Position numbers and translations under genes: made by a program. Shown in pieces: positions 3,899 to 51,082 of a stretch of 64,000 nt of DNA (position 1 is its first letter; each line of letters begins with the position of its first letter). The stretch is from Nitrospinota bacterium. GTDB taxonomy: Bacteria > Nitrospinota_A > UBA7883 > JACRLM01. The stretch lies in NCBI GenBank assembly GCA_016208975.1, contig JACQXA010000002.1:74848-138847 (forward strand), given 5' to 3'. The notes under the pieces are model-generated. The model saw nothing but the letters and a program-made list of their open reading frames with translations. It made no database searches and was not told the DNA's origin.

Positions 3899-4049
3899 GG
3901 TAGTGTCCCGGTTTGAAAGTGCAGGGGAGATTCTTCACTTACGGCCAGAAAGACAATATAAAAGCCGTTGATAACATTGTCATCCTGGGTGAAGCGCAAG
4001 CGAAGTGAGGGATCTGTCTATTATTTGGGATTCAAACTGAGACACCACC
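3899..4049 (+). mobile_element. 151-bp MITE, copy 1
   Basis: TIR GGTAGTGTCCCGGTTTGAA...TTCAAACTGAGACACCACC; flanks TTGGGGCG/ATGGGGCG (7/8 direct repeat). Confidence 0.88.
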
Positions 4050-4132
4050 ATGGGGCGTTTTATCGGGCAAATAGCCCGCCCGCCTGTTAGAATAAGCGGA
4101 TTGCAAGCGCAAAACAGGGGGTTCCAAAGACT

Positions 4133-5569
4133 ATGGACAACCACCGGATTCGCAAGACAAAGATTATCTGCACCCTCGGCCCCGCCTCCTCCTCCCTCGA
4201 AATGATCGTAAAGCTTGCCCATGCCGGGATGAACGTGGCCAGGCTGAATTTCTCCCACGGGACCCATGAATATCACAAGCTTTCCATAGCGGCCATCAGG
4301 CAGGCCAGCGCCCAGACGGGAAAACGCATCGGCATCCTGCAAGACCTGGGCGGGCCCAAGATAAGGCTGGGGGAATTGCGGACGCCCCAGATAATCCTAA
4401 AACCGGGACAACCGGTAACGCTTACAACCGGAGAAACCGCCGAGGGAAACGAAATTCCCGTCAATTACGCATACCTGGCCGAAGATGTCTCCCCCGGTTC
4501 CAAAATCCTGCTGGCCGACGGGCTGGTGGAACTGGCGTTGGAGCGCATAGAAGGGGGCAAGCTTAAGTGCGTCACCATAACCGGCGGGATACTTACCTCC
4601 CACAAGGGGGTGAACCTGCCGCTGTGCAACCTCAGGACACCGGCGTTCACCAAGAAGGACCAGGCGGACCTGGAGTTCGGCCTGATGAATGGCGTGGATT
4701 TTGTGGCCCTCTCCTTCGTGCGCGGCGTGGCGGATCTGCTCCCCGTAAAGGAGGCCATCTCCCGCTCACGAAGCGCCAAACCCATGTTGCTGGCCAAGAT
4801 AGAGAAACCCCAGGCCGTGGAAAGCCTCAACGAGATATTGCCAATGGTGGACGGGATCATGGTGGCCCGGGGAGACCTTGGGGTTGAAACCCCTTTCGAA
4901 AGGCTTCCCATAATCCAGAAAAGCGTTATCACAGCCGCCCGCAGGGCCGGAAAGCCGGTTATCACCGCCACGCAGATGTTACGCTCCATGATAGACAGCC
5001 CCAGGCCCACCCGCGCCGAAGCCACCGACACGGCCAACGCCATCCTCGACGGGACAGATGCGCTGATGCTGTCCGAGGAGACCGCCGCCGGAGATTACCC
5101 CGTGGAGGCGGTAACCACTTTGGACATGATAGCCAGGGCAACGGAGGAGAGTTACGATTCGGCCAAATACATGGACGAGCCGGAATCGGCGTTCGTGCAG
5201 GATACCGAGGCGGCCATGAGCCGCGCCGCGTGCGGCCTGGCGCTTAAATTGGGCGCGGTCTGTCTGGCCACATCCACCCTTACCGGGCACACCGCGCGGA
5301 TGATCTCCCGCTTCAGGCCTTCCATGCCCATCATAGGGTTTACATGCGACGAAGACACATTCAGAAAGCTCAATCTTTCATGGGGCGTCATACCCGCGCT
5401 GATTCCCCAGACACAGGATTTGGGGACGCTTTGCCGCACCGCTGAGCGGTTCGCCAGGGATAACGGCCTGGGCGCGGCCGGGGACAGGATAATAGTTACC
5501 GCCGGTTACCCGCTTTGGGTTTCCGGCTCCACCAACATTGTGGAGGTGATAACCATAAACGGTTCATGA
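4133..5569 (+). CDS. pyk: Pyruvate kinase
   Basis: RKTKIICTLGPAS, ARLNFSHG, AKIEK, MVARGDLGVE, ATQMLRSM, PTRAEATD. Confidence 0.96.
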   Translation: MDNHRIRKTKIICTLGPASSSLEMIVKLAHAGMNVARLNFSHGTHEYHKLSIAAIRQASAQTGKRIGILQDLGGPKIRLGELRTPQIILKPGQPVTLTTGETAEGNEIPVNYAYLAEDVSPGSKILLADGLVELALERIEGGKLKCVTITGGILTSHKGVNLPLCNLRTPAFTKKDQADLEFGLMNGVDFVALSFVRGVADLLPVKEAISRSRSAKPMLLAKIEKPQAVESLNEILPMVDGIMVARGDLGVETPFERLPIIQKSVITAARRAGKPVITATQMLRSMIDSPRPTRAEATDTANAILDGTDALMLSEETAAGDYPVEAVTTLDMIARATEESYDSAKYMDEPESAFVQDTEAAMSRAACGLALKLGAVCLATSTLTGHTARMISRFRPSMPIIGFTCDEDTFRKLNLSWGVIPALIPQTQDLGTLCRTAERFARDNGLGAAGDRIIVTAGYPLWVSGSTNIVEVITINGS

Positions 5570-5575
5570 CAGGCG

Positions 5576-7492
5576 TTATTGTTCCGCCTTTTTGATGGTG
5601 AACCGGAATACGCTCCCTTCGCCCGGGGTGGATTCCACCCAAATATTCCCTCCCCCCATTTCCACGATCTTCTTGCACATGGCAAGCCCGACACCGGTGC
5701 CTATACGGTCTTTTGCGGGCCGCAGACGCTGGAACATTTTAAAGATGAGTTCATGGTATTGAGTTTCTATCCCCACCCCGTTATCCTTTATTGAAAGCTC
5801 TATTAACCCCTCGCGCTCCACCGCTTTAATCTCCACCTCGGGTTTCACGCTGGAATCCGTGTAGGTGATGGCGTTGGCTATCAGGTTATGGAAAACGATG
5901 GATAGTTGATCCGGATCCGCTTTAACCTTGGGCATGGCGCCCAGTTTGATCGCGGCCCCCGTCCGCTCCATCATTTCCCGGAGGCTTATAAGCGCGTTTC
6001 CGGCGCATTCCGCGGGATCCACGTTGTCCCGGGGATTAAAATGGGCCGACAGGCGCGAATACGCCAGAAGGTCCTGGATTACGGCCTGGAGGCGCCGGGC
6101 CCCGTCCACGGCGAAGTTTATGAAACTGTCCGCCTCCGCGTCCAGCTTGCCTTTGTAATTTGACGCAAGGATCTGAAGGTAGCTTGCGATAGTCCTCAAA
6201 GGCTCCTGCAGGTCGTGCGACGCCACATAGGCGAACTGCTCCAGCTCCTGGTTGGACCTTATAAGGTCTTCCGTGGTTTTTTCCAGCGCGTCTTCCCGCT
6301 CTTTTAAATGGGTGATGTCGTGGAAAACCACAAGCCCCAACTCTCCTATGGATGAATAGTTGAGGATAACTTCCCGTTTGGATCCCTCCTTCCGCGTGAT
6401 GGACACCCGCACCGGCTCCATGCCCGCCATTTCCCGGTCCGCCTTCTCCATGGCCTCTTCCCATGTTCGCAAGACCCGCGTGCGATACTCCTCATCGGGG
6501 CAAGCCTTGCCCCACCACTGGCCGGTGTCGGCTATCTCGTTGGGCGCATAGCCGGACATCTCGCTGAACTTTTTATTGGAGAACACTATCTTTTGCTCTT
6601 TGTCGGTGATTATCATCGGCGTTGGGGACGCCTCCACCACCTGGAGCGTGCGTAGCTCGCTGGCGTGAAGCCTGCTTTCCACCCGCTCCCGCTGGGCCAT
6701 CTCTTCCCTAAGCTGGTCATTGGCCCATTCCAGCTCCGCGCGGGTTTTATACTCGCTTTCAGTTGTGGCCCTTATTTTCCGGTAGCTCAACGTTAGCCCC
6801 AGAATACCAATTACCCATATCAACGAGTAAGCGATCGCGTGCCGCTCATTCTCCAGCCTCTGCCCCGCATAGTAGCTTTCCAGAGGCGCCGAGACACTTA
6901 CGCCGCCCCTGATGTCCCCCACCTTGTACCCTTGCTCCGCATGGCACTTCAGGCACCCTTCTTTGGTATATATTGGCCGCATGAACCGCAGGAAAGGCTT
7001 TCCGTTCATCTCCGTCACCTCTGAAACCTCCTTCACACCCGCTTCAAAGGCTTTCAGGGCGCTCTCCTCCCATGGATCCGGCTTGTTTATGGGGTTTTTC
7101 AGGCTAAGGCTTGTTATATGGCCGAAAAACCTTTTGGTCCTTGCGAAATATTCATTTACCTGCCGCGCCATGTACGCCGGGTTCATGAGCGTCAGTTTTC
7201 TTCCCGAAGGTGTCGTGATGTCTCTCTCCGGTATATTGGAAAGGTAGATGTTTGGCGGTGTATTGGCGTCCACTGGCACATATACCCCGCCGTGCGAGGC
7301 GGCCCATTCCCTGAAAGCCACGTCTTTGGCGTAATTGGCCTGCGCCTCGTTCCTGGCGGTTTGCAATGTGAATTGGTGTATTTTCCACCTGTCCCACACC
7401 GCCAGCGATACTATAAGCAAAGACCACAGGACGAACGCCAGCGCCGAATACCTTTTCAGCGCCGCGCCCAGATGGTCTTGACGGTTTACCAT
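5576..7492 (-). CDS. Membrane sensor histidine kinase: periplasmic DUF3365/Tll0287-like c-heme domain, PAS, HisKA, HATPase
   Basis: Two TM segments flank a domain with CLKCH; ASHDLQEPLR H-box; N, G1 and G2 boxes (GTGVGLAMC). Confidence 0.88.
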   Translation of the reverse strand: MVNRQDHLGAALKRYSALAFVLWSLLIVSLAVWDRWKIHQFTLQTARNEAQANYAKDVAFREWAASHGGVYVPVDANTPPNIYLSNIPERDITTPSGRKLTLMNPAYMARQVNEYFARTKRFFGHITSLSLKNPINKPDPWEESALKAFEAGVKEVSEVTEMNGKPFLRFMRPIYTKEGCLKCHAEQGYKVGDIRGGVSVSAPLESYYAGQRLENERHAIAYSLIWVIGILGLTLSYRKIRATTESEYKTRAELEWANDQLREEMAQRERVESRLHASELRTLQVVEASPTPMIITDKEQKIVFSNKKFSEMSGYAPNEIADTGQWWGKACPDEEYRTRVLRTWEEAMEKADREMAGMEPVRVSITRKEGSKREVILNYSSIGELGLVVFHDITHLKEREDALEKTTEDLIRSNQELEQFAYVASHDLQEPLRTIASYLQILASNYKGKLDAEADSFINFAVDGARRLQAVIQDLLAYSRLSAHFNPRDNVDPAECAGNALISLREMMERTGAAIKLGAMPKVKADPDQLSIVFHNLIANAITYTDSSVKPEVEIKAVEREGLIELSIKDNGVGIETQYHELIFKMFQRLRPAKDRIGTGVGLAMCKKIVEMGGGNIWVESTPGEGSVFRFTIKKAEQ

Positions 7493-7601
7493 GACTAGTT
7501 AGAACCCAGCTTTGAGCAATACCAACCCACTTCCTATTTTGGGGCATAACGCGCACAGACGCCAGAGTTGGTTAAATAATTAAAAGCGCCGCGCGGTTAT
7601 A

Positions 7602-10307
7602 TCAGCTTTCCGGAATGTCCCGTCGAAGCGGGATGGTGATGGTGAACACCGTGCCTTTGCCCGGCTCGCTGTCCACGGTAATGGTCCCATTGTGCTTTTG
7701 AATGATGGTGTGCGACAAGGCCAGCCCCAGCCCAGTCCCCTTCCCCGCCGGTTTTGTGGTGAAGAACGGATCGAATATCCGTTTCAGGTTTTCTTTGGAC
7801 ATCCCCTCGCCGTCATCGCGGACCTCCACCATCACCGTATCTTCCCCGTCGCTGGTGCGGACGGTTATTGTCCCTTTATCTTTTATCGCCTGGGCGGCGT
7901 TCACAAAAAGGTTCAAGAACACCTGTCCCAGCTGGTTTGGGATGCATTCCACTATGCTCGCGTTTTTCGATTCGTACTTCCGCGCAACCTCCGCCTTATA
8001 TTTGATCTCGTTCCGCGCTATGTTGAGCGCCCCGTCTATTATTATGTGGACGTCCGTAGCCTCCCAATGCTCTTCAGACACATGGACGAACGGCTTTAGA
8101 TCCTTAACTATCGTGATTATCCTCTGCGTCCCTTCCATGGACTCTTCCATGATCTCCCGGAACTCCTCCCTTAACGGGCGGGACTCATCCAGAAGCTTTT
8201 CCACGGCCTCCGGGCTGTCCTTTAACCCGTCTATCAGCCCGAAAAGCTTTTCCACGGCTTTCTTTATATAAATCTGGTTGGAGCTGACGAAGCTGATGGG
8301 GTTGTTTATCTCGTGGGCTATTCCCGCCGCAAGATTGCCTATGGAGGCCATTTTTTCCGACTGCAAAAGCATCTGCTCAGAGGTTTTTCGCGCCGTTATG
8401 TCTCTTAACAAGCCCACAGCCATCCATTTGCCGTGTATTTTCACGGCGGACAAGGACAACTCGGCGGGGAAGATGGAGCCGTCGCTTTTCTGGGCGCTTA
8501 TCTCCGTTACTCTGCCTATCATCGCCCCGGTTCCGGTTTCACCGAACCGCTTTATCCATTCTTCATGGCGCTTCCTGACATCCGGCGGTATTATCAGCTC
8601 CGACATTTTCCCGCCCAGCGCCTCTTCGGCGGGGTATCCAAATATCCTTTCCGCCGATTCGTTCCAGGAACGGATTTTACCCTCTTCGTCTATCAGCAAT
8701 ACAGCGTCCTGGGCCGCCTCGGCGATAAGCCGGAATTTTTCCTCCGCCTGCCTCCGGGCGGCGCTCTCCCGGATGAAATTGATCCCAAACGCCATGTCCT
8801 CCGCCATTTCCTCGAGTAGCTCCACCTCATCGCCGCTGAAAGCTTCCGGCGATCCGGAGTAAACATTTATGATCGCCGCCACCGCTCCCCCTATCAATAT
8901 TGGCATCGCCGCGTAAGAGGCGTATCCGCAGGCTTTGGCGTCCTGGATGGCCCCGTTACTTTCCTTTTTACCAAGTATGGCCCGGTCAATGAAAGCCGCT
9001 TTCGACTGGATAACCCCGGCCAGGGGCCCTTCTCCGGCTGAAAGCCCGGGCCACCGGCGCTCGATGGGTATGTCGTCCATTTTTTCGTATCCCGCGCTGG
9101 CCGCCACCCGAAGGGTTTTTGGTTCGCCATTATCAACGTAGCATATCCATGCCATGCGGTATCCGCCAACCCTGACTATCACCTGGCATATGGCGTTTAA
9201 CAGGTCCCCCTCGGTGCTGGACCTTACAAGGACCCGGTTGCCCCGGCTGAGCATCCTCAACGCCCTGTTCAGCCTTATCAGCTCCTCCTCGGCATTCTTG
9301 CGTTCCGTTATGTCCAGCGCCGCGCCCACCATCTTTGCCCCGGCCTCGTTTTCTTCCCTGTATGCCCTGCATTGGGCGCTTATGTGGCGTATGGAGCCGT
9401 CGGGCCTCACAATCCGGCTTTCCACGTCCACCGGCTCTTTTTTCGTAAGGGCGCTTTCGATGACGGTTTTCACCAACTCCCTGTCATCCGGATGGGTCAT
9501 CGAGATAAACAGGTCGAACGAGGGCGGGAATTTGGCGGGGCTTATCCCCAATATCACATACATCTCGGACGACCAGGTAACGTGATTCTTGTTTATGTCC
9601 ATGCTCCAGGTTCCAAGCCGCGCCGTCTCCTGGGCGCGCCGCAGGGTCTCCTGGCTTTCCCGAAGCCTCTCCTCTATCTTTTTCCGTTCCTCCACCTCCG
9701 CCACCAGCGCCGCCGTCCTTTGCCTTACTTTTTCCTCCAGCTGTTCGTTGAGGGTGGCCAGCCCCTGTTGAACCTTGCTCAACTCCTTGTTCTGCTCTAT
9801 GGCGTTTTCGTAGATGGACAGGAGCAGGCTCATTATCCGCTCCCGGTTGGAGGTAACGGTGAAACGCTTGCCGCCGTAAGTGATGGTGGTGGGGGCTTCT
9901 TCCCGCTTAGGCAAGACCTCTATATGGTTCTCCAGGAAATAAGCCACCTTGGAAAGCAGGAACGCGGGGTTGTAAGGCTTTGTGATGTAGTAATCCGCCC
10001 CGGCCTCCAGGCTCTTTATCACATCCTCCACTTCGGACAGCTGGGTGAGCAGGATGACCGGAGCCTTTACCTCTTCCTCCTTCTTTATCCGCATGCACAT
10101 GCCCCAGCCGTCCATCTTGGGCATGAGCACGTCGCTTATTATCAGCGCGGGTTTGCGCCATTTGGCCATGGAAAGCCCCTCCTCGCCATCCCGGGCGCGG
10201 ATTATCTGGAAACCCTCCTGCTCAAGGATCCGCTGTAAAAGGACAGCCTGAACGTCGCTGTCCTCCACTATCAGTATTTCCCTCTTCGGCATACCCGTGG
10301 GACTCAT
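7602..10307 (-). CDS. Hybrid sensor kinase REC-PAS-GAF-PAS-HisKA-HATPase
   Basis: N-terminal REC (IVEDS, SDVLMP); PAS domains (THPDDR, WNESAERIFG); GAF; IAHEINNP H-box; FFTTKPAGKGTGLGL. Confidence 0.9.
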   Translation of the reverse strand: MSPTGMPKREILIVEDSDVQAVLLQRILEQEGFQIIRARDGEEGLSMAKWRKPALIISDVLMPKMDGWGMCMRIKKEEEVKAPVILLTQLSEVEDVIKSLEAGADYYITKPYNPAFLLSKVAYFLENHIEVLPKREEAPTTITYGGKRFTVTSNRERIMSLLLSIYENAIEQNKELSKVQQGLATLNEQLEEKVRQRTAALVAEVEERKKIEERLRESQETLRRAQETARLGTWSMDINKNHVTWSSEMYVILGISPAKFPPSFDLFISMTHPDDRELVKTVIESALTKKEPVDVESRIVRPDGSIRHISAQCRAYREENEAGAKMVGAALDITERKNAEEELIRLNRALRMLSRGNRVLVRSSTEGDLLNAICQVIVRVGGYRMAWICYVDNGEPKTLRVAASAGYEKMDDIPIERRWPGLSAGEGPLAGVIQSKAAFIDRAILGKKESNGAIQDAKACGYASYAAMPILIGGAVAAIINVYSGSPEAFSGDEVELLEEMAEDMAFGINFIRESAARRQAEEKFRLIAEAAQDAVLLIDEEGKIRSWNESAERIFGYPAEEALGGKMSELIIPPDVRKRHEEWIKRFGETGTGAMIGRVTEISAQKSDGSIFPAELSLSAVKIHGKWMAVGLLRDITARKTSEQMLLQSEKMASIGNLAAGIAHEINNPISFVSSNQIYIKKAVEKLFGLIDGLKDSPEAVEKLLDESRPLREEFREIMEESMEGTQRIITIVKDLKPFVHVSEEHWEATDVHIIIDGALNIARNEIKYKAEVARKYESKNASIVECIPNQLGQVFLNLFVNAAQAIKDKGTITVRTSDGEDTVMVEVRDDGEGMSKENLKRIFDPFFTTKPAGKGTGLGLALSHTIIQKHNGTITVDSEPGKGTVFTITIPLRRDIPES

Positions 10308-10311
10308 CGAA

Positions 10312-11394
10312 TCACCTTTCCCTTTCAACCCTGGGGACCATGGATATAATGACGTCCGCTATCTGGTCCAGCGGAAGCACGTATCGGGCGGCTCCCCTGT
10401 CTATGGCGCTTCTCGGCATGCTGTGGACTACGCTGGTAGCCTCGTCCTGCGCTATGGTCATGCCCCCGGCGGATTCTATGGCTTTCATCCCTTCCGCCCC
10501 GTCATCGCCCATGCCCGTTAGAAGTATCCCCATGGCGGCGCTGGCGTACCTTTCCGCCACGGATTTAAAGGCAAGGTTTATGGATGGGCGGTGCCCAAGG
10601 TAAGGGGGTGTTTGCGCGTACCTGAACAGGCCTGCCTTGTCTATCAGCAAATGCGCCCCTTCTTGGGCAAAATAGGCGTGGCCCGGGAAAGGATAGTCCC
10701 CGTTCCCGGCCACGCTGATCTTGATTTGGCTGTTGGACTGCAACCACTCCACAAGCCCCTCCATAAACCCTTCCGTAATATGCTGGACGCAAATCACCGG
10801 CATGGGAAAACCGTGGGGCAGTTGGGAAAGGATAGAGTAAAGGGCCTGGGGGCCGCCCGTGGACGCCCCAATGGCCACCGCCCTTATGACCCCTTTGCTA
10901 TTGATATTATCCCCCGGCGCGCCATATCCTTTTCCAGCTATCCCCATCTTCCGGATCACATGCACGCCGGCCAGTATTTTCACTTTGCTGACAAGCTCTC
11001 CGGACATATGCATGTATTCGGATTCCAAAGACGCGCGGGGTTTTGTGAAAACGTCTATGGCCCCCGCCTGCAACAGTTCGAACGCGTTGTGCGAATTTTT
11101 TTCCACCGACACGCTGACCACCAGTATGGGGCGCGGATATTTTTCTATGACCTGTCTGGTGAATTCCAGCCCCCCCATACCGGGCATGTGCAGGTCCGTA
11201 AGGACAACCGCCGGATCCAGCGCGGGAATCATCCTTAAAGCCTCCTCGCCGCTCTGCGCCATGCCTATCACCTCTATGTCCGGTGATGTGGACAACATCC
11301 TTCTCAACAGCGTCAACGCCACCATCGAATCGTCCACCAGCAGAACCTTGATTGTCCCGCCGTGGCGGCCGCTTTTGTTAGAAGCCACTTCCAT
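10312..11394 (-). CDS. cheB: Chemotaxis methylesterase CheB (REC + esterase)
   Basis: REC domain; GASTGG catalytic Ser, QHI, TGMGDDG; AAGGAG RBS before ATG 11394. Confidence 0.94.
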   Translation of the reverse strand: MEVASNKSGRHGGTIKVLLVDDSMVALTLLRRMLSTSPDIEVIGMAQSGEEALRMIPALDPAVVLTDLHMPGMGGLEFTRQVIEKYPRPILVVSVSVEKNSHNAFELLQAGAIDVFTKPRASLESEYMHMSGELVSKVKILAGVHVIRKMGIAGKGYGAPGDNINSKGVIRAVAIGASTGGPQALYSILSQLPHGFPMPVICVQHITEGFMEGLVEWLQSNSQIKISVAGNGDYPFPGHAYFAQEGAHLLIDKAGLFRYAQTPPYLGHRPSINLAFKSVAERYASAAMGILLTGMGDDGAEGMKAIESAGGMTIAQDEATSVVHSMPRSAIDRGAARYVLPLDQIADVIISMVPRVERER

Positions 11395-11482
11395 TACCGC
11401 GCTCCTTGGGGTCAAGTCTAAGGAATGGAGACCGTGTCGCCAGGGGGAGGCGCTCCGTAGCCTTCCAAATACTTCTTATCTC

Positions 11483-13735
11483 TCAAATAAATCTCCTGAG
11501 GGTTTCACCAAGGATTTTCTGGTCGAACGCCGGTTTTGGGATATAGGCGTTTGCCCCGGCCTCCAATCCCTTCTTCTTGTCCTCATCGGAGGCGAGGGTT
11601 GTAACCAATATCACCGGCAGTTCCTTAAGCCTTGCATCCTGGCGTATCCTGGCGGTTAAGGCGAGGCCGTCCATGTTGGGCATCATGATGTCCGACACCA
11701 CCACGTCGAACTGCCGCTCCGCCAGTTTGCCCCACGCGTCCATCCCGTCCACCGCCGTGGCCACTTCGTATCCAAAACCCTCGATAATCCTTTTTATCTG
11801 CGTCCGCGTGGTTATGGAGTCCTCCACCAGCAGGATCGCCCGTTTCGTTTCCCGCGCCGCGGCTTTCACCGGGGCCGGAGCCCGCGCCATGGCCTTTTTC
11901 CGGGCTGTTGATAGCATGTCCACCGGGTTTAGCGCAACGCATACTTCCCCGTTACCAAGGATGGTGGAGCCGGTCACGTTGCGCACCCGTTTCAGCAATT
12001 GGCTGTGGGGTTTTATCATTATCTCCTGCTCGTCCACCAACTCGTCCACCCGCAGGGCCATGATTTCATCCCCCGCCTGGATAACCACGCAGGGGAACGC
12101 CCCGCCCTTCCCGGCGGTCCCATTTTTCCGCCCCTTGCCGGCGGCGCCGGGCAGTTCCAGAATATCGCTGAGCCGGGCTATGGAGGTGGGGCGGCCGCTG
12201 AAAGATATGGTCTCCCGGCCTTCCATGGGAAACATTTCCTCGGGTGACACCATAATGGTCGAATTGGTGAATTCTATGGGTATGGCGTAACTCTTCCCCT
12301 CCGCCCTGACTATGAGGACCCGGGTGGTGGCCAGGGACACGGGCAATATTATCTTTATCACGCATCCAGCCCCAGCGGCGGATTCCACCCGGACGGAGCC
12401 TTTAAGCGATTCCGTTTTCGCCTTTACCGTGTCCAGCCCAACCCCCCGGCCGGAGATGTCCGTCACAAACGCGCTGGTGGAAAACCCTGGAGCGAATATG
12501 ATGGATTTCAGCTCCTCGTCGGGCGTCTCCTCCGCCCCTTCGGCCGCTATTATCCCGCGCTTTATGGCCTCGCGCTTTATGGCTTCCGTGTCCAGCCCCC
12601 GGCCATCGTCGGACACTTCTATTATTATGTTCGTCTCGGTACGCAACGCTTTCAGGCGGATCGCGCCGGTTCCGGGCTTCCCCAGCCGCTCCCGCTCTTC
12701 CGGGGGCTCAATGCCATGGTCTATGGCGTTTCTTATAAGGTGCATGACAGGGTCTTTCATCTCTTCTATCACGCGCTTGTCCGCTTTCGTGTCGCCTCCG
12801 GTTATCTCCAGCTTTACCTCTTTGTTCCTTACCCGCGAAAGGTCCCGCGCCATTCTGGGGAAAAGGTCGAACAGCGTGGAGAATGGCAATAACCGGATGT
12901 CGCGGATCCCGCCCTCCAGCGCGCCGGAAATAAAATCCAGTTTTGAATTGTCTTCGTTAATGGCGTCCCGGAGGGAATTAAAGGAGTCTGTGGCGCGGCT
13001 GATCAGCTCCCCGGCCCGGGATTGGTTAACAAGAGACCCGGCGGATGATACGTTCCGCGGCTCCATCCTGCTGGCGTAAATCACCGGGGCCAGCTCTTTT
13101 ACCAGCTCGTCCCACAGGTTCAGCGCGTCGTCCGCCTGGGAAAGCCTGTGCGCCATGCGGGTTTTCAACACCACAAGCTCCCCGGTCTGGTTCATCAGCT
13201 CGTCCAGCTGGCCGGTTTTAACGCGGACGGTGTCTATCTGGTATGGGGCGGAGTGGGATACCTCCGGCGCGACGGGTTCCGGCCTGTCCTGGCCGGATGC
13301 AGGTTTACCCGCTGGCGGCGCGGCAGTTGGCGGTTCTTCCGGGCCGTCATTTCCCGCCTCGCCGGTTAACCGCCGGATCACTTCCTCAACATCCACTCCA
13401 GCGGGGGCCTCGCCGGTGACGGCTTCGTTAACAAGTTTTTTCACGGAGTCCATGGCGGAGTACATCCGGTCGGCCATGGCATGGGTGAACACTTTTTCTC
13501 CGTTCCTGATTGGGGCGAGCATATCCTCCATGCTGTGCGCTATGCGTTCCACGCCCATGATGCCGAGCATTCTGGAGGAGCCTTTGAGGCTGTGGACCTC
13601 CCGGAGCAGGTCCTCATAAAAGGCGCTGTCAGCAGGTTGCCCGCTTTCCAGATGGAGAAGGTATTTTTCCATTTTGGGCAGGCGCTCATCGCACTCCGTC
13701 CGGTACAGATCGCGCATCTCCCTGTCTTTTATCAT
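11483..13735 (-). CDS. cheA: Hybrid CheA (Hpt, dimerisation, HATPase, CheW, C-terminal REC)
   Basis: HSLKGSSRM Hpt; HLIRNAIDHG; FSTSAFVTDISGRGVGL; C-terminal LLVEDS...DIMMP. Confidence 0.93.
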   Translation of the reverse strand: MIKDREMRDLYRTECDERLPKMEKYLLHLESGQPADSAFYEDLLREVHSLKGSSRMLGIMGVERIAHSMEDMLAPIRNGEKVFTHAMADRMYSAMDSVKKLVNEAVTGEAPAGVDVEEVIRRLTGEAGNDGPEEPPTAAPPAGKPASGQDRPEPVAPEVSHSAPYQIDTVRVKTGQLDELMNQTGELVVLKTRMAHRLSQADDALNLWDELVKELAPVIYASRMEPRNVSSAGSLVNQSRAGELISRATDSFNSLRDAINEDNSKLDFISGALEGGIRDIRLLPFSTLFDLFPRMARDLSRVRNKEVKLEITGGDTKADKRVIEEMKDPVMHLIRNAIDHGIEPPEERERLGKPGTGAIRLKALRTETNIIIEVSDDGRGLDTEAIKREAIKRGIIAAEGAEETPDEELKSIIFAPGFSTSAFVTDISGRGVGLDTVKAKTESLKGSVRVESAAGAGCVIKIILPVSLATTRVLIVRAEGKSYAIPIEFTNSTIMVSPEEMFPMEGRETISFSGRPTSIARLSDILELPGAAGKGRKNGTAGKGGAFPCVVIQAGDEIMALRVDELVDEQEIMIKPHSQLLKRVRNVTGSTILGNGEVCVALNPVDMLSTARKKAMARAPAPVKAAARETKRAILLVEDSITTRTQIKRIIEGFGYEVATAVDGMDAWGKLAERQFDVVVSDIMMPNMDGLALTARIRQDARLKELPVILVTTLASDEDKKKGLEAGANAYIPKPAFDQKILGETLRRFI

Positions 13736-30504: not shown

Positions 30505-30655
30505 GGTAGTGTCTCAGTTTGAAAGTACAGGAGAGATCCTTCACTTACGCCCAAAATGACAATATAAAAGCAGTTGATAACATTGTCATCCTGAACGAAG
30601 CGCAAGCGAAGTGAAGGATCTGTCTATTATTTGAGATTCAAACTGGGACACCACC
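30505..30655 (+). mobile_element. 151-bp MITE, copy 2
   Basis: Same TIRs and internal hairpin; flanks AGGATCCT/GGAATCCT (6/8). Confidence 0.88.
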
Positions 30656-38900: not shown

Positions 38901-38976
38901 TGGCTCCCCGGGACGGACTCGAACCGCCGACATGGTGGTTAACAGCCACCCGCTCTACCGACTGAGCTACCGGGGA
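38901..38976 (-). tRNA. tRNA-Asn(GTT)
   Basis: TCCCCGGTAGCTCAGTCGGTAGAGCGGGTGGCTGTTAACCACCATGTCGGCGGTTCGAGTCCGTCCCGGGGAGCCA: 76 nt, GTT anticodon, encoded CCA. Confidence 0.97.
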
Positions 38977-39035
38977 AAACACGAACCTAAAATTTAATCA
39001 AATCCACCCTTCAATGTCAAAACGTATTTTAATGG

Positions 39036-39186
39036 GGTGGTGTCCCAGTTTGAATCTCAAATAATAGACAGATCCTTCACTTCGCTTGCGCTTCGCCCAG
39101 GATGACAATGTTATCAACGGCTTTTATATTGTCATTCTGAGCGTAAGTGAAGAATCTCCCCTGTACTTTCAAACTGGGACACTACC
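39036..39186 (-). mobile_element. 151-bp MITE, copy 3 (inverted)
   Basis: Same sequence in reverse orientation; no 8-bp flanking duplication (TTTAATGG/CCAGCTGT). Confidence 0.86.
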
Positions 39187-39307
39187 CCAGCTGTAAAAAG
39201 CAATCCGCCTCATGCCAACTCCCTGAAAAATACAGCGCTTTTTCGCCTTCCAGCGCCGCCCGCTAAAAAGGTTCCCCCGCCATTTCCACCACCCGGCGCC
39301 CCATGGT

Positions 39308-40450: not shown

Positions 40451-40452
40451 CA

Positions 40453-42754: not shown

Positions 42755-42758
42755 GGGT

Positions 42759-43325: not shown

Positions 43326-44467
43326 AGTCCCGCCCCGGCCAGTTTGCGTTCGTAAAGGGCCAGTGTTTTTTGCGTCACGATCTTTTCAGAGAACTTTTCT
43401 ATAACGGCCGCCCGCCCGGCGTCGCCCATTTTGCGCCGCAAGGCCGGATCGGTTGACAGTTTTTCTATGGCTCCGGCCAGGGCGTTTACATCCCGCAACG
43501 GGACCAGCAGGCCGTTCTCGCCATGCCGGGTTATCTCGCGGCACCCGGCTATGTTGTAAGCCACGATGGGCCGGGCCGCCGAAGCCGCCTCGATGAGTGA
43601 TTTTGGCACCCCTTCGCCGTAAAAGGAGGGCAGGGCCACTATGGACGCTTTCTTCAAGGTATCCGGCATGTCGTCCCGCTGGCCCCAATATTCCACCACG
43701 CCTTCATCGTTCCACTCAGCCAGCTGGCTCGGAGCTATGGATGATGGATTATGTTCATCCGGAGACCCAGCCAGGGCCATGCGGACGGCGGCCCCGCGGG
43801 ACTTTAATATCCGCGCCGCCTCCACGAAATCATAAACCCCTTTAGTGGCAAGCATTCTGGAAGACAATAGAACCACCGGCGCGCCGGAAGGCTCCTTGCC
43901 CGGGGGGGTGAAAACGTCCGTATCCACTCCGGAGCCCATTATCAGTTCCGCTTGGCTTGGCGTAACGATTTTCCCGCTAACGAACGTGTTCATGTCGTCC
44001 GGGTTCTGGAAAATCGCGCAGGATTTTTTGCGTCCCATGGCCAGCCGCAGTACGGTTTTTATGGCGGTCCGGGTGACCGACGCTTTGAACCCCTGGGCCA
44101 CAAAAATATGCCCAAGCCCCGCCAGCGCGTTCACCGTGACCGGCACACCGGCCAAAGACGCGGCGATGGAGCCATAGACCACCGGTTTTAACGCCACGTG
44201 ATGGGCCACATGGGGCTTCACCCGTTTATAGATAGCCACTATTTCCGCAATCGCCATTGCCTCGGAGAATGGGTTCAGCGACCGGCGGGACAGGCTCAGC
44301 GGTGCAAGCGAAAACCCTTCTGCGGCAATCTTATCGCCGTGGCGGTTCACCGCCGTAGCCACGGTAACCTCGTATCCCGCGTCCCGCGCGGCCCTGGCCA
44401 AAGCCAGCCTGTGGGAGTGGAAGTACCAGTCCTCGGTGATAAAAAACAGGATTTTTCGCTTCGTCAT
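43322..44467 (-). CDS. GT4 glycosyltransferase (PglA/CapM-like)
   Basis: TEDWYFHSHRL; SRMLATKGV; EGVPKSLIEA; start set at MTKRK. Confidence 0.9.
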   Translation of the reverse strand: MTKRKILFFITEDWYFHSHRLALARAARDAGYEVTVATAVNRHGDKIAAEGFSLAPLSLSRRSLNPFSEAMAIAEIVAIYKRVKPHVAHHVALKPVVYGSIAASLAGVPVTVNALAGLGHIFVAQGFKASVTRTAIKTVLRLAMGRKKSCAIFQNPDDMNTFVSGKIVTPSQAELIMGSGVDTDVFTPPGKEPSGAPVVLLSSRMLATKGVYDFVEAARILKSRGAAVRMALAGSPDEHNPSSIAPSQLAEWNDEGVVEYWGQRDDMPDTLKKASIVALPSFYGEGVPKSLIEAASAARPIVAYNIAGCREITRHGENGLLVPLRDVNALAGAIEKLSTDPALRRKMGDAGRAAVIEKFSEKIVTQKTLALYERKLAGAGL

Positions 44468-44548
44468 CCGGTTATTATGAGTTTGATAATGGCCGTAATG
44501 GGAGATTTTGTCATTTCGGCGGGTATAAGGCAATATGCCCCGAAATTG

Positions 44549-44699
44549 GGTAGTGTCCCAGTTTGAAAGTACAGGGGAGATTCTTCACTTACGCTCAGAA
44601 TGACAATATAACAGCCGTTGATAACATTGTCATCCTGAGCGAAGCGCAAGCGAAGTGAAGGATCTGTCTGTTATTTGAGATTCAAACTGGGACACCACC
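44549..44699 (+). mobile_element. 151-bp MITE, copy 4
   Basis: Perfect 8-bp target duplication CGAAATTG on both sides. Confidence 0.92.
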
Positions 44700-44791
44700 C
44701 GAAATTGACACCTGCATGGCTCACGGCTACCATACTTGCTCGAGGATGGCGCGAGGCGCCTGTTTTCGCAACATTTAACCGCTAAGGCGTT

Positions 44792-45937
44792 TTGATGCCC
44801 AGTTTGCCCCGTTCCAACCATAACCGCGTTATCCTTTTGCTGGCGGCGGTAATATTTATCGCCCACAACGCCTGGTTCCTCCGCTCCCCCATCATCATGA
44901 GCGGCGACACGCCCAGGTATATAGACTCGGCGGATTACCTTCTGGCCCACGGCGCAATAGTTGGGCGCGACCAGAATTATTCCGGGTTCGTGGCTTACCT
45001 GGCGTTTATGAAAATACTGGCGCCTGAAGGGGAATCGTTCAAAATAGCCGCCATCGCGGTCCAGACCTTTATTTCCCTCATCGCCTTTCTATGCGTTTAT
45101 GGAACCGGGGCGCGGGTGTTCTCCGAGACTGCCGGGGCGCTGTCGGCTCTGTTCTTCTCGCTGAACCATTACGCCATATACTGGATCCAGTATGCGCTTA
45201 CCGACTCGCTGTTCATTTCGTTCGTCATCATATCCGTATGGGCGCTGGTCCGTTTCGGCGAAAACGGGCGATGGATATGGCTGGCGGCCCCAGCCTGCCT
45301 GTTCACCGCCGCGCTCCGGCCCAACGGGGTGTTCATATTCCCGGTGTTTCTTGTTTATCTGCTGTCATATTTGTCCCGGAAGGTTCAAATAGCCATCTAC
45401 TCGGCCTGTATTGCGGCGGCCATCGCGGCCTCCCCCTTCCTGATGACGGAGTTCCAGAAAGCCACGGACCATATACAGGTGATGGACAACCTCACCGGCG
45501 GTTATCTTGTGTGGGGGCTGGACAAAATTGAAATGCCCCCGTTCCAATGGGAAAAAAAGAACGTGATAGAAGATTCGTTCACCTATTTCACCGCCTATCC
45601 CAAGGACACTCTCAAGCTTTTCGCCACCCGGCTCTACACCGCCTACATCTTTACCCGGAGCGGCTACACTCCCGCCCACAACGCTTTCCTGCTCACGGTC
45701 CTGCCGGTGTTCTACATTCTCGCCGCCGCCGGGGCCGTCAGGAGTTATATTACGGTCTTCACCCGCGACAGGTTGCTTGTAATGGGCGTCATCGCCGTTC
45801 AAAGCGCCATACTGGCCCTCACTTTCAGCGATTACGACCCCCGGTTCACGTGCTACATTATTACCCTTGTGGCGCTGTTCTCGGCCTACGGCGCCGAATG
45901 GATTGGAATAATCACCGTTGGGAAACGCGGCGTTTAA
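44792..45937 (+). CDS. GT-C (ArnT/PMT-like) integral membrane glycosyltransferase
   Basis: GDTPRY early loop, LTDSLF, LRPNG; many TM segments. Confidence 0.72.
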   Translation: MMPSLPRSNHNRVILLLAAVIFIAHNAWFLRSPIIMSGDTPRYIDSADYLLAHGAIVGRDQNYSGFVAYLAFMKILAPEGESFKIAAIAVQTFISLIAFLCVYGTGARVFSETAGALSALFFSLNHYAIYWIQYALTDSLFISFVIISVWALVRFGENGRWIWLAAPACLFTAALRPNGVFIFPVFLVYLLSYLSRKVQIAIYSACIAAAIAASPFLMTEFQKATDHIQVMDNLTGGYLVWGLDKIEMPPFQWEKKNVIEDSFTYFTAYPKDTLKLFATRLYTAYIFTRSGYTPAHNAFLLTVLPVFYILAAAGAVRSYITVFTRDRLLVMGVIAVQSAILALTFSDYDPRFTCYIITLVALFSAYGAEWIGIITVGKRGV

Positions 45938-45952
45938 TGGAGCGTTGTTGAT

Positions 45953-47395
45953 ATGCCGGCATCAGTTTATCTAGACCCCGCCCGGGACGAATATACCCGC
46001 AAGCGGATGGAGCATTGGGACTCGCTGGCGCCGGATCTGGACCAATACAAACGCCACAGCGCCGCGTACCATAAAAGGCTGGCCGGGGTTTACCGGTTCA
46101 TCATCCCCCAGGGAAGCCGGGTGCTGGAGATGGGATGCGGCCGGGGCGACCTTCTGGCGGCGTTAAAGCCCGGCAAAGGCGTGGGGGTGGATTTTTCAGC
46201 GGAAACAATCCTGGCGGCCCGCCAGAGGCATCCACAGCTGGAATTCATCAACGCCGACGCGCACGATTTGGATATGGCCGGGGAGTTCGATTTCATCATC
46301 CTGTCCGACCTGCTTAACGACCTGTGGGACGCGCAACAGGCCCTGGAGCGCGTCCGGAAGCTTTGTTCGCCCCGCACGAGGGTTGTGATGAACCTCTACA
46401 GCAAGCTGTGGGAGGCGCCGCTGTCATTCACCAAACGGCTGGGGCTCTCCACGCCGAACCTTACGCAGAACTGGCTTACCGTGGAGGATGTGGCGAACCT
46501 TTTGTCGCTCACGGATTTGGAGATGATCCGCAGTTTCGGCGAGGTGATGCTACCCCTTGATATTCCCGCCGTGACAACCATGTGCAACCGCTACCTTGTA
46601 AAACTGTGGCCATTAAGACATCTGGCGCTCACCAATTTCATCGTGGCGCGTCCGGTGGGTTTTGGGCCATCTCAAAAACCAGTGGTGTCCGTATTGGTTC
46701 CCGCGCGTAACGAGGCGGGGAACGTTCCGGACATTTTCAGGCGCGTGCCGCAAATGGGCGCGGGAACCGAGCTTATCTTCGTTGAGGGCCATTCCAAAGA
46801 CGACACCTATTCAGCCATCGAACGGGAGATTAATAACCACCCCGGAATGCGCGTGAAGCTGTTAAAACAGACCGGCAAGGGCAAAGGCAACGCCGTGCGG
46901 GAGGGTTTTACAGCGGCCACAGGCGACGTGCTGATGATCCTGGACGCGGACCTTACCGTGCCGCCGGAAGACCTGCCCCGGTTCCTGGAGGTGATAACCT
47001 CCGGCAAGGGGGAGTTCGTCAATGGTGTACGTTTAGTCTATCCCATGGAAGACCAGGCCATGCGGTTCCTGAACCTGCTGGGCAACAAGTTCTTCAGCCT
47101 GGCCTTCTCGTGGCTTTTGGGCCAGCCGGTAAAAGACACGCTGTGCGGCACGAAGGTTCTGCGAAAAAGCGATTACGAGAACATCGCCGCCAACCGGAGC
47201 TATTTCGGCGATTTCGACCCCTTTGGCGATTTTGACCTGATATTCGGCGCCGCCAAGGCCAACATGAAGATTGTGGACCTGCCCGTGCGATACCGCGCCC
47301 GCCTTTACGGCGAGACCAACATAAACCGCTGGAGCCACGGCGCCCTGCTTCTGCGCATGGTTGCCTTCGCAATGAGCCGTATAAAGTTCATATAG
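45953..47395 (+). CDS. Bifunctional SAM-methyltransferase/GT2 glycosyltransferase
   Basis: VLEMGCGRG; VPARNEAGN; GKGNAV; ILDADL; DTLCGTK. Confidence 0.9.
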   Translation: MPASVYLDPARDEYTRKRMEHWDSLAPDLDQYKRHSAAYHKRLAGVYRFIIPQGSRVLEMGCGRGDLLAALKPGKGVGVDFSAETILAARQRHPQLEFINADAHDLDMAGEFDFIILSDLLNDLWDAQQALERVRKLCSPRTRVVMNLYSKLWEAPLSFTKRLGLSTPNLTQNWLTVEDVANLLSLTDLEMIRSFGEVMLPLDIPAVTTMCNRYLVKLWPLRHLALTNFIVARPVGFGPSQKPVVSVLVPARNEAGNVPDIFRRVPQMGAGTELIFVEGHSKDDTYSAIEREINNHPGMRVKLLKQTGKGKGNAVREGFTAATGDVLMILDADLTVPPEDLPRFLEVITSGKGEFVNGVRLVYPMEDQAMRFLNLLGNKFFSLAFSWLLGQPVKDTLCGTKVLRKSDYENIAANRSYFGDFDPFGDFDLIFGAAKANMKIVDLPVRYRARLYGETNINRWSHGALLLRMVAFAMSRIKFI

Positions 47396-47473
47396 GTTCC
47401 AGAAAACCGCCGGTTGCTATAAAATGCCCCTGTCGCGCCCTGTTGGGGCGCCTTTCGGGGATCGTTAAATACC

Positions 47474-48403
47474 GTGGAAAAAACATCGAAAATATTTGTG
47501 GCCGGACACAAGGGGCTGGCGGGGTCGGCCATTTGCCGCGCTCTTGAAAAAAACGGTTACTCCAACCTTCTTCAGCGGGACAGGGGCCAGCTCGACCTTG
47601 AGGACCAGCGTTCCGTGCGGGAGTTTTTCAAGTCTGAAAAGCCGGAATATGTTTTTCTGGCGGCGGCGCGGGTGGGGGGCATCATGGCCAACAACACGTA
47701 CCGGGCCGAGTTCATCTACAACAACCTGATCATCCAGACCAACGTGATAGACGCCGCCTGGCGCGCCGGAACGCAACGGCTGATGTTTTTGGGTAGCTCC
47801 TGCATCTACCCGCGCCATTGCCCCCAGCCTATGAAGGAGGAACACCTGCTCACCGGCCCGCTGGAGCCCACCAACGAGCCCTACGCCGTGGCCAAGATAG
47901 CCGGAATAAAAATGTGCGAGGCTTATAACGCCCAGTACGGCGCAAGCTTTGTGTCCGTCATGCCCACGAACCTGTACGGGCCGAACGATAATTTCGACAT
48001 ACACAACGCCCACGTCCTGCCCGCCCTTCTGCGCCGGGTGCACGAGGCGAAAAAAGCCAAAGCGCCGGAAATAGTCGTATGGGGCACCGGAACCCCCACC
48101 CGGGAGTTCCTGCACGCCGACGACATGGCCTCAGCCTGCCTTTTCGTAATGCAAAAAGGGATTACGGAAATGGTGAACATCGGCACTGGCGTGGATGTTA
48201 CCATCGCCGAGCTGGCTCGGCTGATATGCAGTGTTGTGGGGTATGAGGGGGAGGTGAAGTTTGACCCTTCAAAACCCGACGGCACGCCCCGCAAAAGGCT
48301 GGATGTCTCCCGGTTGGGCGAATACGGCTGGAACGCGGGAATAAGCCTGGAGGAAGGGCTGGAAAGCGCCTACCGCTGGTTTTTGGCCAGCAAATACGTC
48401 TGA
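47474..48403 (+). CDS. fcl: GDP-L-fucose synthase
   Basis: [45 protein letters not shown]. Confidence 0.94.
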
Positions 48404-48407
48404 CAGG

Positions 48408-48803
48408 TCAGTACTGCTTCTCGTAACTGGCAAGGTCGGTATTCGGCTCCCGCTTCTTCCAGTAGGTGGCGGCGCTCTTGTCTATTCGCCTGTCCATGGG
48501 GTCCTTGCCCAGGGCGCGCATGATAAGCCCCGTGGGGGTGATGATCAAATAAAACACGATGGCCAGCAACAGCCGCGTGTTAAACCACGCCAGAGCCGCG
48601 GCGAACTTTATCCAAAGCCGGTAGAAGGGCAGAAGCGCCATGGGGGCGAAAGCCGCGAAGAAGGCGAAGAACGCCGACGCGCCTAGGAAATAAGGATAGG
48701 CCGCCCGCCCGCGCCACCACAAAATCCCGCCGATGACGCCGAAGATGACGGTGAAACCTGTCCAGGTTGTTCGTACTTCTTTTACGCTCTCGCCTATGGC
48801 CAT
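48408..48803 (-). CDS. SxtJ-family membrane protein
   Basis: Three hydrophobic segments; IITPTGLIMRALGKDPM...YW..R...YEKQY. Confidence 0.82.
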   Translation of the reverse strand: MAIGESVKEVRTTWTGFTVIFGVIGGILWWRGRAAYPYFLGASAFFAFFAAFAPMALLPFYRLWIKFAAALAWFNTRLLLAIVFYLIITPTGLIMRALGKDPMDRRIDKSAATYWKKREPNTDLASYEKQY

Positions 48804-50623
48804 TAGTCCAGCTCGAACTCCTTTTGCCAGTCGGTGTCCCCCTCAAGGGCGGGCTGTTGGGTCTTGTCCAGCACATAGTTGCCCAGCACCAGGTAATCCA
48901 TGTTGGTGCGCATGAAACACTTGTAGGCCTCGGCGGGCCTGCAAACGATGGGTTCGCCCCGCACGTTGAAGGAGGTGTTGATTATCACCGGGCAACCGGT
49001 GATCCGCTCGAATTTCTTTATCAGCTCGTAATATGCGCCGTTGCGCTCCCTGTCCACGGTCTGGAGCCGGGCAGAATAGTCCACGTGGGTTATGGCCGGT
49101 ATGTCCGACCGGGGGACGTTGAGCTTCTCTATGCCGAAAAGCTGTTCCTGCTCGGCGGTCATGGCCTTGCGGTGATCGTTCCGCACCGGGGCCACCATGA
49201 GCATGTAAGGGCTCTCGGCGTCATAATCGAAATAATCCGCCACCCGCTCCCGCAATACCGACGGGGCGAAGGGGCGGAACGATTCGCGGAATTTTATCTT
49301 CAGGTTCATCACCGACTGCATCTCCGGGGAGCGCGCGTCGCCGATGATGCTCCGGGCCCCCAGGGCGCGCGGGCCGAACTCCATGGGCCCGTAGAACCAG
49401 CCTATGACCTTTTCCGAGGCGACAAGTTTGGCCACGGCCGTGGTCAATTCGTCCTCGCTGGAATATTTTGTGAACGGGGCGCCGCTTTCCTCCAAGTATT
49501 TTCCGATTTCCTCGTCGGAATAATGGGGGCCAAGGTAAGAGCCCCTCTGAACGTCCCGTTTGCCGTCGGCCTTCCTGGGTTGGCCTTCCACCTTGTGCCA
49601 GGCGAACAGCGCCGCTCCCAAGGCCCCTCCGGCGTCTCCGGCGGCGGGCTGTACCCATATCTCGTCAAAAACCTTCTCGGCCAGCAGTTTCCCGTTGGCC
49701 ACGCAGTTCAAAGCCACACCCCCGGCCAGGCAAAGCCTGGAAAGGCCGGTCACCTTCCGGGCATGGCGGCCCATGCGCAACATGGCCTCCTCGGTCACCA
49801 CTTGCACCGACCGGGCCAGGTCCATCTCTTTCTGGGAAAGCCGGGTCTCCGGTTTTCTGGGCGGGCCGCCGAACAGGGCGTGGAATTTTTCCGATGTCAT
49901 GGTAAGCCCGGCGCCGTAGTTGAAATAGCCCATGTCCAGCTTGAAGGAGCCGTCTTCCTTGAGGTCTATTAAATGCTTGTAGATGAGATCCACATATTTC
50001 GGCTCTCCATAAGGGGCCAGGCCCATCACCTTGTACTCGCCGGAATTCACCTTGAACCCGGTGTAGTAGGTGAACGCCGAATATAAAAGCCCCAGCGAAT
50101 GGGGGAAATGCATTTCGTAGAGCAACTCCAGGCCGTTACCCCTGCCCACGCCCAGCGAGGTGGTGGCCCACTCCCCCACCCCGTCCACGGTCAAAATGGC
50201 CGCCTCTTCAAAGGGCGACGGGTAGAAGGCCGAGCCCGCGTGGGACTCGTGATGCTCCGGGAATATTATCTTCCCCTCGTATCCCAGCTTTTCGCGGAGG
50301 TGGTCCCGCATCCACAGCTTTTCCTTCAGCCACAGGGGGATGGCCTTGAAGAACGTGGTGATCCCCTGCGGAGCGTAAGCCAGGTAGGTCTCAAGGATGC
50401 GCTCGAACTTTATCCAGGGTTTGTCATAGAAAGCCACGGCCCCGAGGTCGGCCACGGTGATGCCCGCCTTCTCCAGACAGAACCGCACCGCGTGCTCCGG
50501 ATAGTCGGCGTCGTGCTTTTTCCGCGTGAAACGTTCCTCCTGGGCGGCGGCCACTATCTGGCCGTCTTTCAACAGCGCCGCGGCGGAGTCGTGATAGAAC
50601 GCGGATATCCCCAGTATGTAAAT
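48803..50623 (-). CDS. O-carbamoyltransferase (NodU/CmcH/TobZ/SxtI family), apparent ATT start
   Basis: YILGISAFYHDSAAAL, EERFTRKKH, EHHESHA, DGVGE, GGVALNC, EFGPRALG, NTSFN; RBS GGAG, then an in-frame TAA, then ATT at 50623. Confidence 0.9.
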   Translation of the reverse strand: MYILGISAFYHDSAAALLKDGQIVAAAQEERFTRKKHDADYPEHAVRFCLEKAGITVADLGAVAFYDKPWIKFERILETYLAYAPQGITTFFKAIPLWLKEKLWMRDHLREKLGYEGKIIFPEHHESHAGSAFYPSPFEEAAILTVDGVGEWATTSLGVGRGNGLELLYEMHFPHSLGLLYSAFTYYTGFKVNSGEYKVMGLAPYGEPKYVDLIYKHLIDLKEDGSFKLDMGYFNYGAGLTMTSEKFHALFGGPPRKPETRLSQKEMDLARSVQVVTEEAMLRMGRHARKVTGLSRLCLAGGVALNCVANGKLLAEKVFDEIWVQPAAGDAGGALGAALFAWHKVEGQPRKADGKRDVQRGSYLGPHYSDEEIGKYLEESGAPFTKYSSEDELTTAVAKLVASEKVIGWFYGPMEFGPRALGARSIIGDARSPEMQSVMNLKIKFRESFRPFAPSVLRERVADYFDYDAESPYMLMVAPVRNDHRKAMTAEQEQLFGIEKLNVPRSDIPAITHVDYSARLQTVDRERNGAYYELIKKFERITGCPVIINTSFNVRGEPIVCRPAEAYKCFMRTNMDYLVLGNYVLDKTQQPALEGDTDWQKEFELD

Positions 50624-50662
50624 GGCTTATTCTCCCAATTAAAAGGAACCGCCCGGTGGCTT

Positions 50663-50821
50663 CTAGAACAACGTGTATATGAAAGGCGCCAAAGCGGAAC
50701 CTTCCGTGAACACGATGAGCGCCCCGAGGGCCAGCAGAATAAGAATTATGGGCCCCAGCCAGAATTTTTTCCTGACTTTAAGGAAATCCCAGAACTCTCC
50801 CAACACTGAAGACTTGGACAT
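50663..50821 (-). CDS. DUF5989/SxtK-family small membrane protein
   Basis: EFWDFLKVRKKFWLGP...SALAPFIYTLF. Confidence 0.88.
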   Translation of the reverse strand: MSKSSVLGEFWDFLKVRKKFWLGPIILILLALGALIVFTEGSALAPFIYTLF

Positions 50822-50931
50822 GTAATCACCGCTATTTGATATAGTTCGCTCCCGCGCCCGCCACTGCGGACACAAGTTGAGGTGGGATTTTACCCCATCA
50901 ACCACCCTCAATTCAAATTTTTCTGCCCATG

Positions 50932-51082
50932 GGTAGTGTCCCAGTTTGAATCTCAAATAATTGACAGATCCTTCATTCCGCTTGCGCTTCGCTCAGGATG
51001 ACAATGTTATCAACGGCTTTTATCTTGTCATTCTGAGCGTAAGTGAAGAATCTCCCCTGCGCTTTCAAACTGGGACACCACC
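50932..51082 (-). mobile_element. 151-bp MITE, copy 5 (inverted)
   Basis: Perfect 8-bp target duplication TGCCCATG on both sides. Confidence 0.92.

Follow-up and report, generated by a model that had tools for sequence, protein, structure and literature searches.

The Correia elements (NEMIS) of Neisseria and the ERIC/IRU sequences of enterobacteria are intergenic, hairpin-forming near-palindromes of ~100-200 bp that are present in high copy; Correia elements duplicate a TA and carry 26-bp terminal inverted repeats (TIRs) of another type than those described below. IS1595 is a sister family of IS1, marked by 8-bp target duplications, GG-starting TIRs and, in some members, passenger genes, while a passenger-carrying branch with a single open reading frame (ORF) is classed by ISfinder within the IS1 family. 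The Chunjie element of Geobacter uraniireducens, a miniature inverted-repeat transposable element (MITE) of 178-235 bp, is intergenic, has conserved TIRs and direct repeats, and occurs in tens of copies besides partial ones, and built-in sigma-70-like promoters have been reported in Correia elements (PMC10969869). Here we analyse a stretch of 64,000 nucleotides from a Nitrospinota bacterium (assembly GCA_016208975.1, contig JACQXA010000002.1, positions 74,848 to 138,847), hereafter the window, which is a polysaccharide-biosynthesis region and holds five copies of a 151-bp repeat. With a probability of roughly 0.85, we interpret this repeat as a MITE with IS1-type ends that is moved in trans by the transposase of an IS1-related lineage. 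It shares with Correia and ERIC the size range, the intergenic position, a probably high copy number and the hairpin-forming near-palindrome, and with Correia also promoter-like motifs (consensus matches only), but differs from both in its 8-bp duplication and IS1-type ends. Chunjie resembles it in lying between genes and in combining conserved TIRs with direct repeats, and differs from it in size, host and sequence.

A search of the window with the TIR pattern GGTRGTGTCCCAGTTTGAA, allowing up to three mismatches, returned 10 matches where ~0.01 would be expected by chance. These matches form five inward-facing pairs (3899/4049, 30505/30655, 39036/39186, 44549/44699 and 50932/51082), each spanning exactly 151 bp. 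A repeat finder likewise recovered the five copies, at 151-155 nt and split three to two between the orientations. Pairwise identity among the copies is 89.4-98.0%, with copy 3 nearest to all others and copy 1 the most diverged. The copies and their surroundings are as follows (strand in brackets).

3899..4049 (+): MITE copy 1, the oldest-looking, 89-94% identical to the others
Surroundings of copy 1: an MFS transporter gene lies 16 bp before it, and a pyruvate kinase gene 84 bp after it
30505..30655 (+): MITE copy 2, upstream of a CmcI-like methyltransferase gene
39036..39186 (-): MITE copy 3, nearest the consensus and 98% identical to copy 4
Surroundings of copy 3: a tRNA gene at 38904-38976 (-) has its 5' end 59 bp away, and lpxK follows after 121 bp
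44549..44699 (+): MITE copy 4, flanked by a GT4 glycosyltransferase gene and a PMT_2-family gene that diverge from each other
44600..44633 (within copy 4): central AT-rich palindrome with sigma-70-like motifs on both strands, consensus matches only
50932..51082 (-): MITE copy 5, with a TIR pair and a perfect 8-bp duplication

The 151-bp element is non-coding, and ORFs touch the copies only where the starts of adjacent genes have been over-extended: a GTG start at 30544 and a TTG start at 44533 fall in or beside the element, and likelier starts lie further in. Once these are discounted, all five copies are intergenic, 16-160 bp from the ends or starts of genes. No transposase of the cognate type was found within the window, where the best tblastn match had an E value of 0.66. 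Since the element encodes nothing, it must be moved in trans. An initial annotation of this DNA had described five near-identical copies in both orientations, all intergenic, with no cognate transposase in the window; our coordinates and identities (89-98%) agree with that description. The host has a sixth copy (L144:1-40), ~9.3 kb beyond the left border of the window. It is adjoined by an MNT/HepT toxin-antitoxin pair (L144:74-678).

The TIRs are 19 bp long (GGTAGTGTC[C/T]CAGTTTGAA) and complementary at 18 of 19 positions within a copy, the two TIRs of a copy differing at position 4 (A versus G). Target duplications of 8 bp, perfect or partial, accompany four of the five copies. Copy 4 is flanked on both sides by CGAAATTG (44541-44548 and 44700-44707; 8/8) and copy 5 by TGCCCATG (50924-50931 and 51083-51090; 8/8), while the flanks of copy 1, TTGGGGCG at 3891-3898 and ATGGGGCG at 4050-4057, match at 7/8 positions and those of copy 2, AGGATCCT and GGAATCCT, at 6/8. 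The right-hand duplication of copy 4 overlaps a TTGACA -35-like hexamer at 44705-44710. The flanks of copy 3 (39028-39194), TTTAATGG and CCAGCTGT, are unrelated, so this copy has no target duplication. The duplications had been given correctly for copies 1, 2, 4 and 5 in the initial annotation, which left the absence at copy 3 unmentioned. The missing duplication would be accounted for if two copies elsewhere had recombined or if a deletion had occurred next to copy 3. An inversion involving copy 3 and a second copy of the window was rejected, as the reciprocal flanks were not found in the window, and a composite transposon of copies 2 and 3, bracketing 8.4 kb, was likewise rejected, as neither their outer nor their inner flanks match.

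We scanned one genome per prokaryotic species (596 Gb) for the 19-mer GGTRGTGTCYCAGTTTGAA; the counts of loci that follow refer to the matches listed. At least 120 loci, spread over many phyla, contain the 19-mer, against ~17 chance matches calculated for a collection of this size. Hosts include Acidobacteriota, Alpha-, Beta-, Gamma- and Delta-proteobacteria, Bacteroidota, Binatia, NC10, Nitrospirales, Verrucomicrobiota, Planctomycetota, Chloroflexota, Actinomycetota, a Bacillota isolate and a CPR genome. Eleven inward-facing pairs of ends enclose 1.0-4.1 kb and are bordered by perfect 8-bp duplications. The transposase-bearing elements with these ends measure 1.4-4.8 kb and contain one conserved ORF of ~275-295 amino acids (MNKLSIEKR...SINTVTKLL...), which was present in 36 of the 120 loci and near full length in 25. 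The 3' end of this ORF abuts one TIR, a small basic ORF occupies the opposite end in 24 loci, and the middle is variable cargo. The initial annotation had proposed a search for a full-length insertion sequence with the same ends, and had counted the lack of any transposase-bearing element with these TIRs, together with a lack of empty orthologous sites, against its own interpretation; transposase-bearing elements with these TIRs and perfect 8-bp duplications exist, so the first of these two objections falls away.

Similarity between the MITE and the full-length elements is confined to the terminal 19-22 bp, in which the terminal 19-20 of 20 bases of the MITE equal those of transposase-bearing elements. 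The end consensus of the lineage is GGTAGTGTCTCAGTTTGAAAT(T), from which most MITE ends of the window differ by a single base, C for T at position 10. The left TIR of copy 2 (GGTAGTGTCTCAGTTTGAA) is of the T type and equals the consensus lineage end exactly over 20 bases, and the sixth copy also carries the exact T-type end over 20 bases. The same ends enclose unrelated short interiors elsewhere, in elements of 41, 57, 124 and 161 bp (L011, L066, L080, L083 and L130), and a ~165-bp MITE family with these ends was found in JGI sample Ga0123338/9 (L123-L125, L128, L132, L136 and L138). The Ga0123338 family lies at many contig ends, indicating that it is high-copy, and the recurrence of the same ends around unrelated short interiors in other organisms indicates that the lineage spawns MITEs repeatedly. 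A scan of JGI data with the C-type end returned 18 loci, all of which belong to other MITE families and elements and none to the window MITE. A literature search by sequence found no paper printing the TIR, and strings from the interior matched only unrelated primers. Separately, on the Acidiphilium plasmid NZ_CP041717.1 (L122, 4001-5721), an IS1-family transposase of the lineage lies immediately next to a RES-domain toxin and MbcA/ParS/Xre antitoxin pair, in keeping with defence and toxin-antitoxin genes as cargo of this lineage.

The 8 bases outside 133 ends of the family display a weak palindromic preference, S-R-N-N-N-N-Y-S, as expected from a symmetric cut with an 8-bp stagger; the copy 4 duplication CGAAATTG fits this consensus. 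We propose that a DDE transposase of this widespread IS1-related lineage would bind and cleave the 19-bp ends, that a full-length element in the same cell would supply the transposase and the MITE would be moved in trans, and that the enzyme would cut its target with an 8-bp stagger and a weak S-R-N-N-N-N-Y-S preference, repair of which would generate the 8-bp duplications. The description of the element as non-autonomous and mobilised in trans, already made in the initial annotation, is supported by the absence of a transposase of its own and by ends held in common with transposase-bearing elements. As an observation apart, the sixth copy abuts GGAATTTACCT and an unrelated full-length element in a Syntrophus metagenome-assembled genome (MAG; L013:4771-4801) abuts GGAATTTGCCT, the two flanks agreeing at 10 of 11 bases, and many further ends abut GAAAT(T/C)(C/G). 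The flanking bases suggest a possible target preference beyond the weak S-R-NNNN-Y-S consensus.

To which family the parent transposase belongs was assessed with four cognate proteins. For all four, the best NCBIfam match is IS1 (NF033558), with E values of 2.5e-15 to 3.4e-18 and 57-66 bits, which lies below the curated cut-off of 100. Two of the four exceeded the gathering score of Pfam DDE_Tnp_IS1, and the NCBIfam IS6 profile matched three at E ~1e-7 and the fourth at 2e-3. In BLASTP against E. coli IS1A, the helix-turn-helix of InsA was matched at E 2e-5, and the catalytic block at the C terminus of InsB at E 2e-7. The transposase is a single uninterrupted ORF of 275-295 amino acids with an N-terminal helix-turn-helix and no N-terminal extension that could hold a zinc finger. 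At the DNA level, the ends (GGTAGTG) are of the GGnnnTG type, and the IS1A end GGTAATGACTCC (from NC_000913.3) agrees with GGTAGTGTCTCA at 9 of 12 bases. Plasmid homologues in PLSDB with 64-70% identity are annotated 'IS1 family transposase', a label that recurs in JGI and NCBI, and in a large protein collection 7,992 of 8,000 scored candidates lay at E <= 1e-60, many of them carrying this name. The 8-bp duplications here compare with 8-9 bp in IS1. The lineage differs from IS1 in that its transposase is a single ORF lacking the zinc finger, accompanied by a small basic ORF and variable cargo, and is spread over many phyla, and the window holds only a miniature non-coding derivative. One ORF, no frameshift, no zinc finger and a score below the cut-off together restrict membership to a broad sense, and judged from these profiles and alignments the assignment of the parent transposase to the IS1 family holds in the broad, single-ORF sense only.

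The initial annotation had instead named IS1595 as the family of origin, a derivation that the 8-bp duplications and GG-starting TIRs would also fit and to which the NCBIfam IS1595 profile (NF033547) lends a weak similarity in three of the four proteins, at E 8.5e-6 to 2e-4 and 21-26 bits against a cut-off of 75. The IS1 profile is nevertheless better by ~10 orders of magnitude, no Pfam IS1595 DDE or zinc-ribbon domain matched any of the four transposases at E <= 0.01, the ends share 9/12 bases with IS1A, and the direct BLASTP matches are to InsA and InsB and the homologues are annotated as IS1. We therefore regard derivation from, and movement by, an IS1595-family element as very unlikely and do not retain the earlier assignment; given that IS1595 is the sister family of IS1, that guess was close.

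Metagenomes were used to examine activity and copy number. Four groundwater metagenome runs contain 96-97% of the words sampled from the window, and their Logan assemblies were analysed. Every Logan contig of the region ends inside a MITE copy. Summed word depth over the MITE is ~20,000-80,000 versus 38-45 for the backbone, and the ratio of MITE to single-copy depth is about 700-1,900x and differs between runs, one set of depths giving about 700-1,250x; none of these values is a copy number. The MITE also terminates contigs whose depth profile differs, which means that it is carried by one or more further populations. Mobile DNA typically accumulates in polysaccharide-biosynthesis regions. The initial annotation had extrapolated from five copies in 64 kb to many per genome; tens to hundreds of copies genome-wide are plausible, but the projection itself is risky, because the MITE density of a polysaccharide-biosynthesis window may not be typical. 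With respect to a helper, contigs of 7.5-11 kb in all four runs match the transposase gene of the L013 element at 81-83% nucleotide identity and carry complete family ends (25/25 bases), stopping exactly at the terminal base. Two IS1-like elements lie on the 7.5-11 kb contig. Relative to the host contigs, the depth of these IS1-like contigs is 0.66-0.80x in each of the four runs, and this steady depth is compatible with a helper in the host population or a subpopulation of it. The IS1-like contig is absent from the best 120 homologues, and three candidate proteins originate from other samples.

That some of the insertions are young is indicated by the perfect duplications of two copies and by one pair of copies that are 98% identical, and we infer that transposition is recent or ongoing. 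The earlier description of the element as recently active is supported in part by these two observations, but no empty-site allele accompanies them in the four assemblies or in JGI contigs.

Several observations weigh against a MITE with IS1-type ends that is moved in trans by a transposase of the IS1-related lineage. Copy 3 lacks a duplication though it is the copy nearest the consensus. The transposases score below the curated IS1 cut-off and have neither the InsA zinc finger nor the classical IS1 frameshift. That the helper resides in this very genome is something we infer; elements of full-length type are shown to be present in the same metagenomes. No contig joining the flanks across any MITE copy was found in the four Logan assemblies, in which contigs drop rare variants, and the reconstructed empty site of copy 4, an exact 22-mer, had 0 matches in JGI metagenome contigs. 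The nearest homologue of the protein flanking copy 4 is only 57% identical, and hence there is no orthologous site for comparison; no look-alike windows came up among those scanned either.

The element has a G+C content of 45% versus 56% for the window, and its interior between the TIRs is almost fully self-pairing. Almost all 151 nt pair into one hairpin, whose folding energy is -71 to -72 kcal/mol (z about -10) whichever strand is folded. Across the five copies, 95% of cells pair, and covariation is no better than in shuffles (only five sequences), so selection on structure is not shown. A search of Rfam found no family for the MITE, only chance-level matches. In the centre of copy 4, the + strand carries the motif ATGACA-16-TAACAT (44600-44627) and the - strand ATGACA-17-TATATT (44633-44605). 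Both sets have a TG-extended -10 and each reads outward through one arm (consensus matches only). Sigma-70-like sites occur at 4-5 per 400 bp versus 0.4 in shuffles. Any regulatory effect of these promoter-like motifs and of the hairpin is a prediction from the letters of the element.

Such features could belong to an immobile cassette that the host retains, with the hairpin as a terminator or messenger RNA stabiliser, or outward promoters, serving the neighbouring genes in the manner of Correia elements. The stable hairpin on both strands and the excess of extended -10 sites at its centre, again on both strands, would accord with this idea, as would the location of all five copies within 16-160 bp of gene ends or starts and the absence of empty-site alleles from the four metagenome assemblies; promoters and IHF sites have been documented in other MITEs (PMC10969869). 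Other observations weigh against it: the covariation does not exceed that of shuffles in five sequences and Rfam offers no match, palindromy alone yields symmetric promoter-like strings, and purifying selection against genic insertions explains the intergenic position equally. A regulatory role would, moreover, be compatible with a MITE origin and would not exclude it. We consider an immobile regulatory cassette unlikely.

A long imperfect palindrome with GTAG in its ends also recalls REP/BIME-type sequences spread by a RAYT tyrosine transposase, or a family of structured RNA genes, and the interior arm resembles a palindrome in an unrelated genome (L103:1372-1440). These readings appear extremely improbable to us. 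The ends are identical to those of elements with a DDE transposase, 8-bp duplications are present, the interior never occurs without TIRs in the window, and there is no Rfam family; RAYTs are not known to make 8-bp target duplications. In the foreign palindrome, GAGATCCTTCGCTGCGCTCAGGATGAC...GTCATTCTGAGCGAAAGC of a deltaproteobacterial MAG resembles the arm GTCATCCTGAGCGAAGCG...AAGGATCT. Capture of the interior from a resident family of free-standing palindromes was rejected, with no TIR-less copy in the window and one similar palindrome among 140 foreign loci. The termini of copy 5 show an A/G asymmetry (GGTAGTG versus GGTGGTG) that is swapped relative to the orientation of the interior, and it looks as if the interior had been flipped via recombination between the two arms of the element itself.

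A MITE with IS1-type ends, moved in trans, is textbook in structure; it is a real but fairly ordinary piece of mobile DNA, and no concept is changed by it. It connects the genome of an uncultured groundwater Nitrospinota bacterium with a widespread, cargo-carrying lineage related to IS1, and the repeated origin of MITEs with unrelated interiors makes this lineage useful for studying MITE birth. More generally, MITEs break assemblies, can alter the expression of neighbouring genes and mark transposases that are active in a lineage. A bolder and, in our estimate, unlikely extension is that several hundred copies might be present here and in the co-occurring population or populations, each rewiring its neighbours, as a Correia-like system of independent IS1-like origin that would be concentrated in surface-polysaccharide loci. 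If this were true, with outward promoters and hairpin active, every insertion could rewire two neighbouring genes.

Further observations concern the surroundings of the copies. Two promoter-like sites fall within 38991-39054: one, TTGACA-18-TAAATT, lies between the tRNA gene at 38904-38976 (-) and copy 3, and the TTCAAA of the copy 3 TIR forms with the flanking TAAAAT a second, hybrid site. Elsewhere in the polysaccharide region, a gene at 54894-55988 (-) encodes HTH_3 and Peptidase_M78 (ImmA/IrrE-type) domains. An ORF at 60791-62248 (+), inside the chromosomal cluster of sugar-nucleotide and polysaccharide genes, carries the plasmid-type replication initiator domains Rep3_N and Rep3_C and might be what is left of an integrated plasmid.

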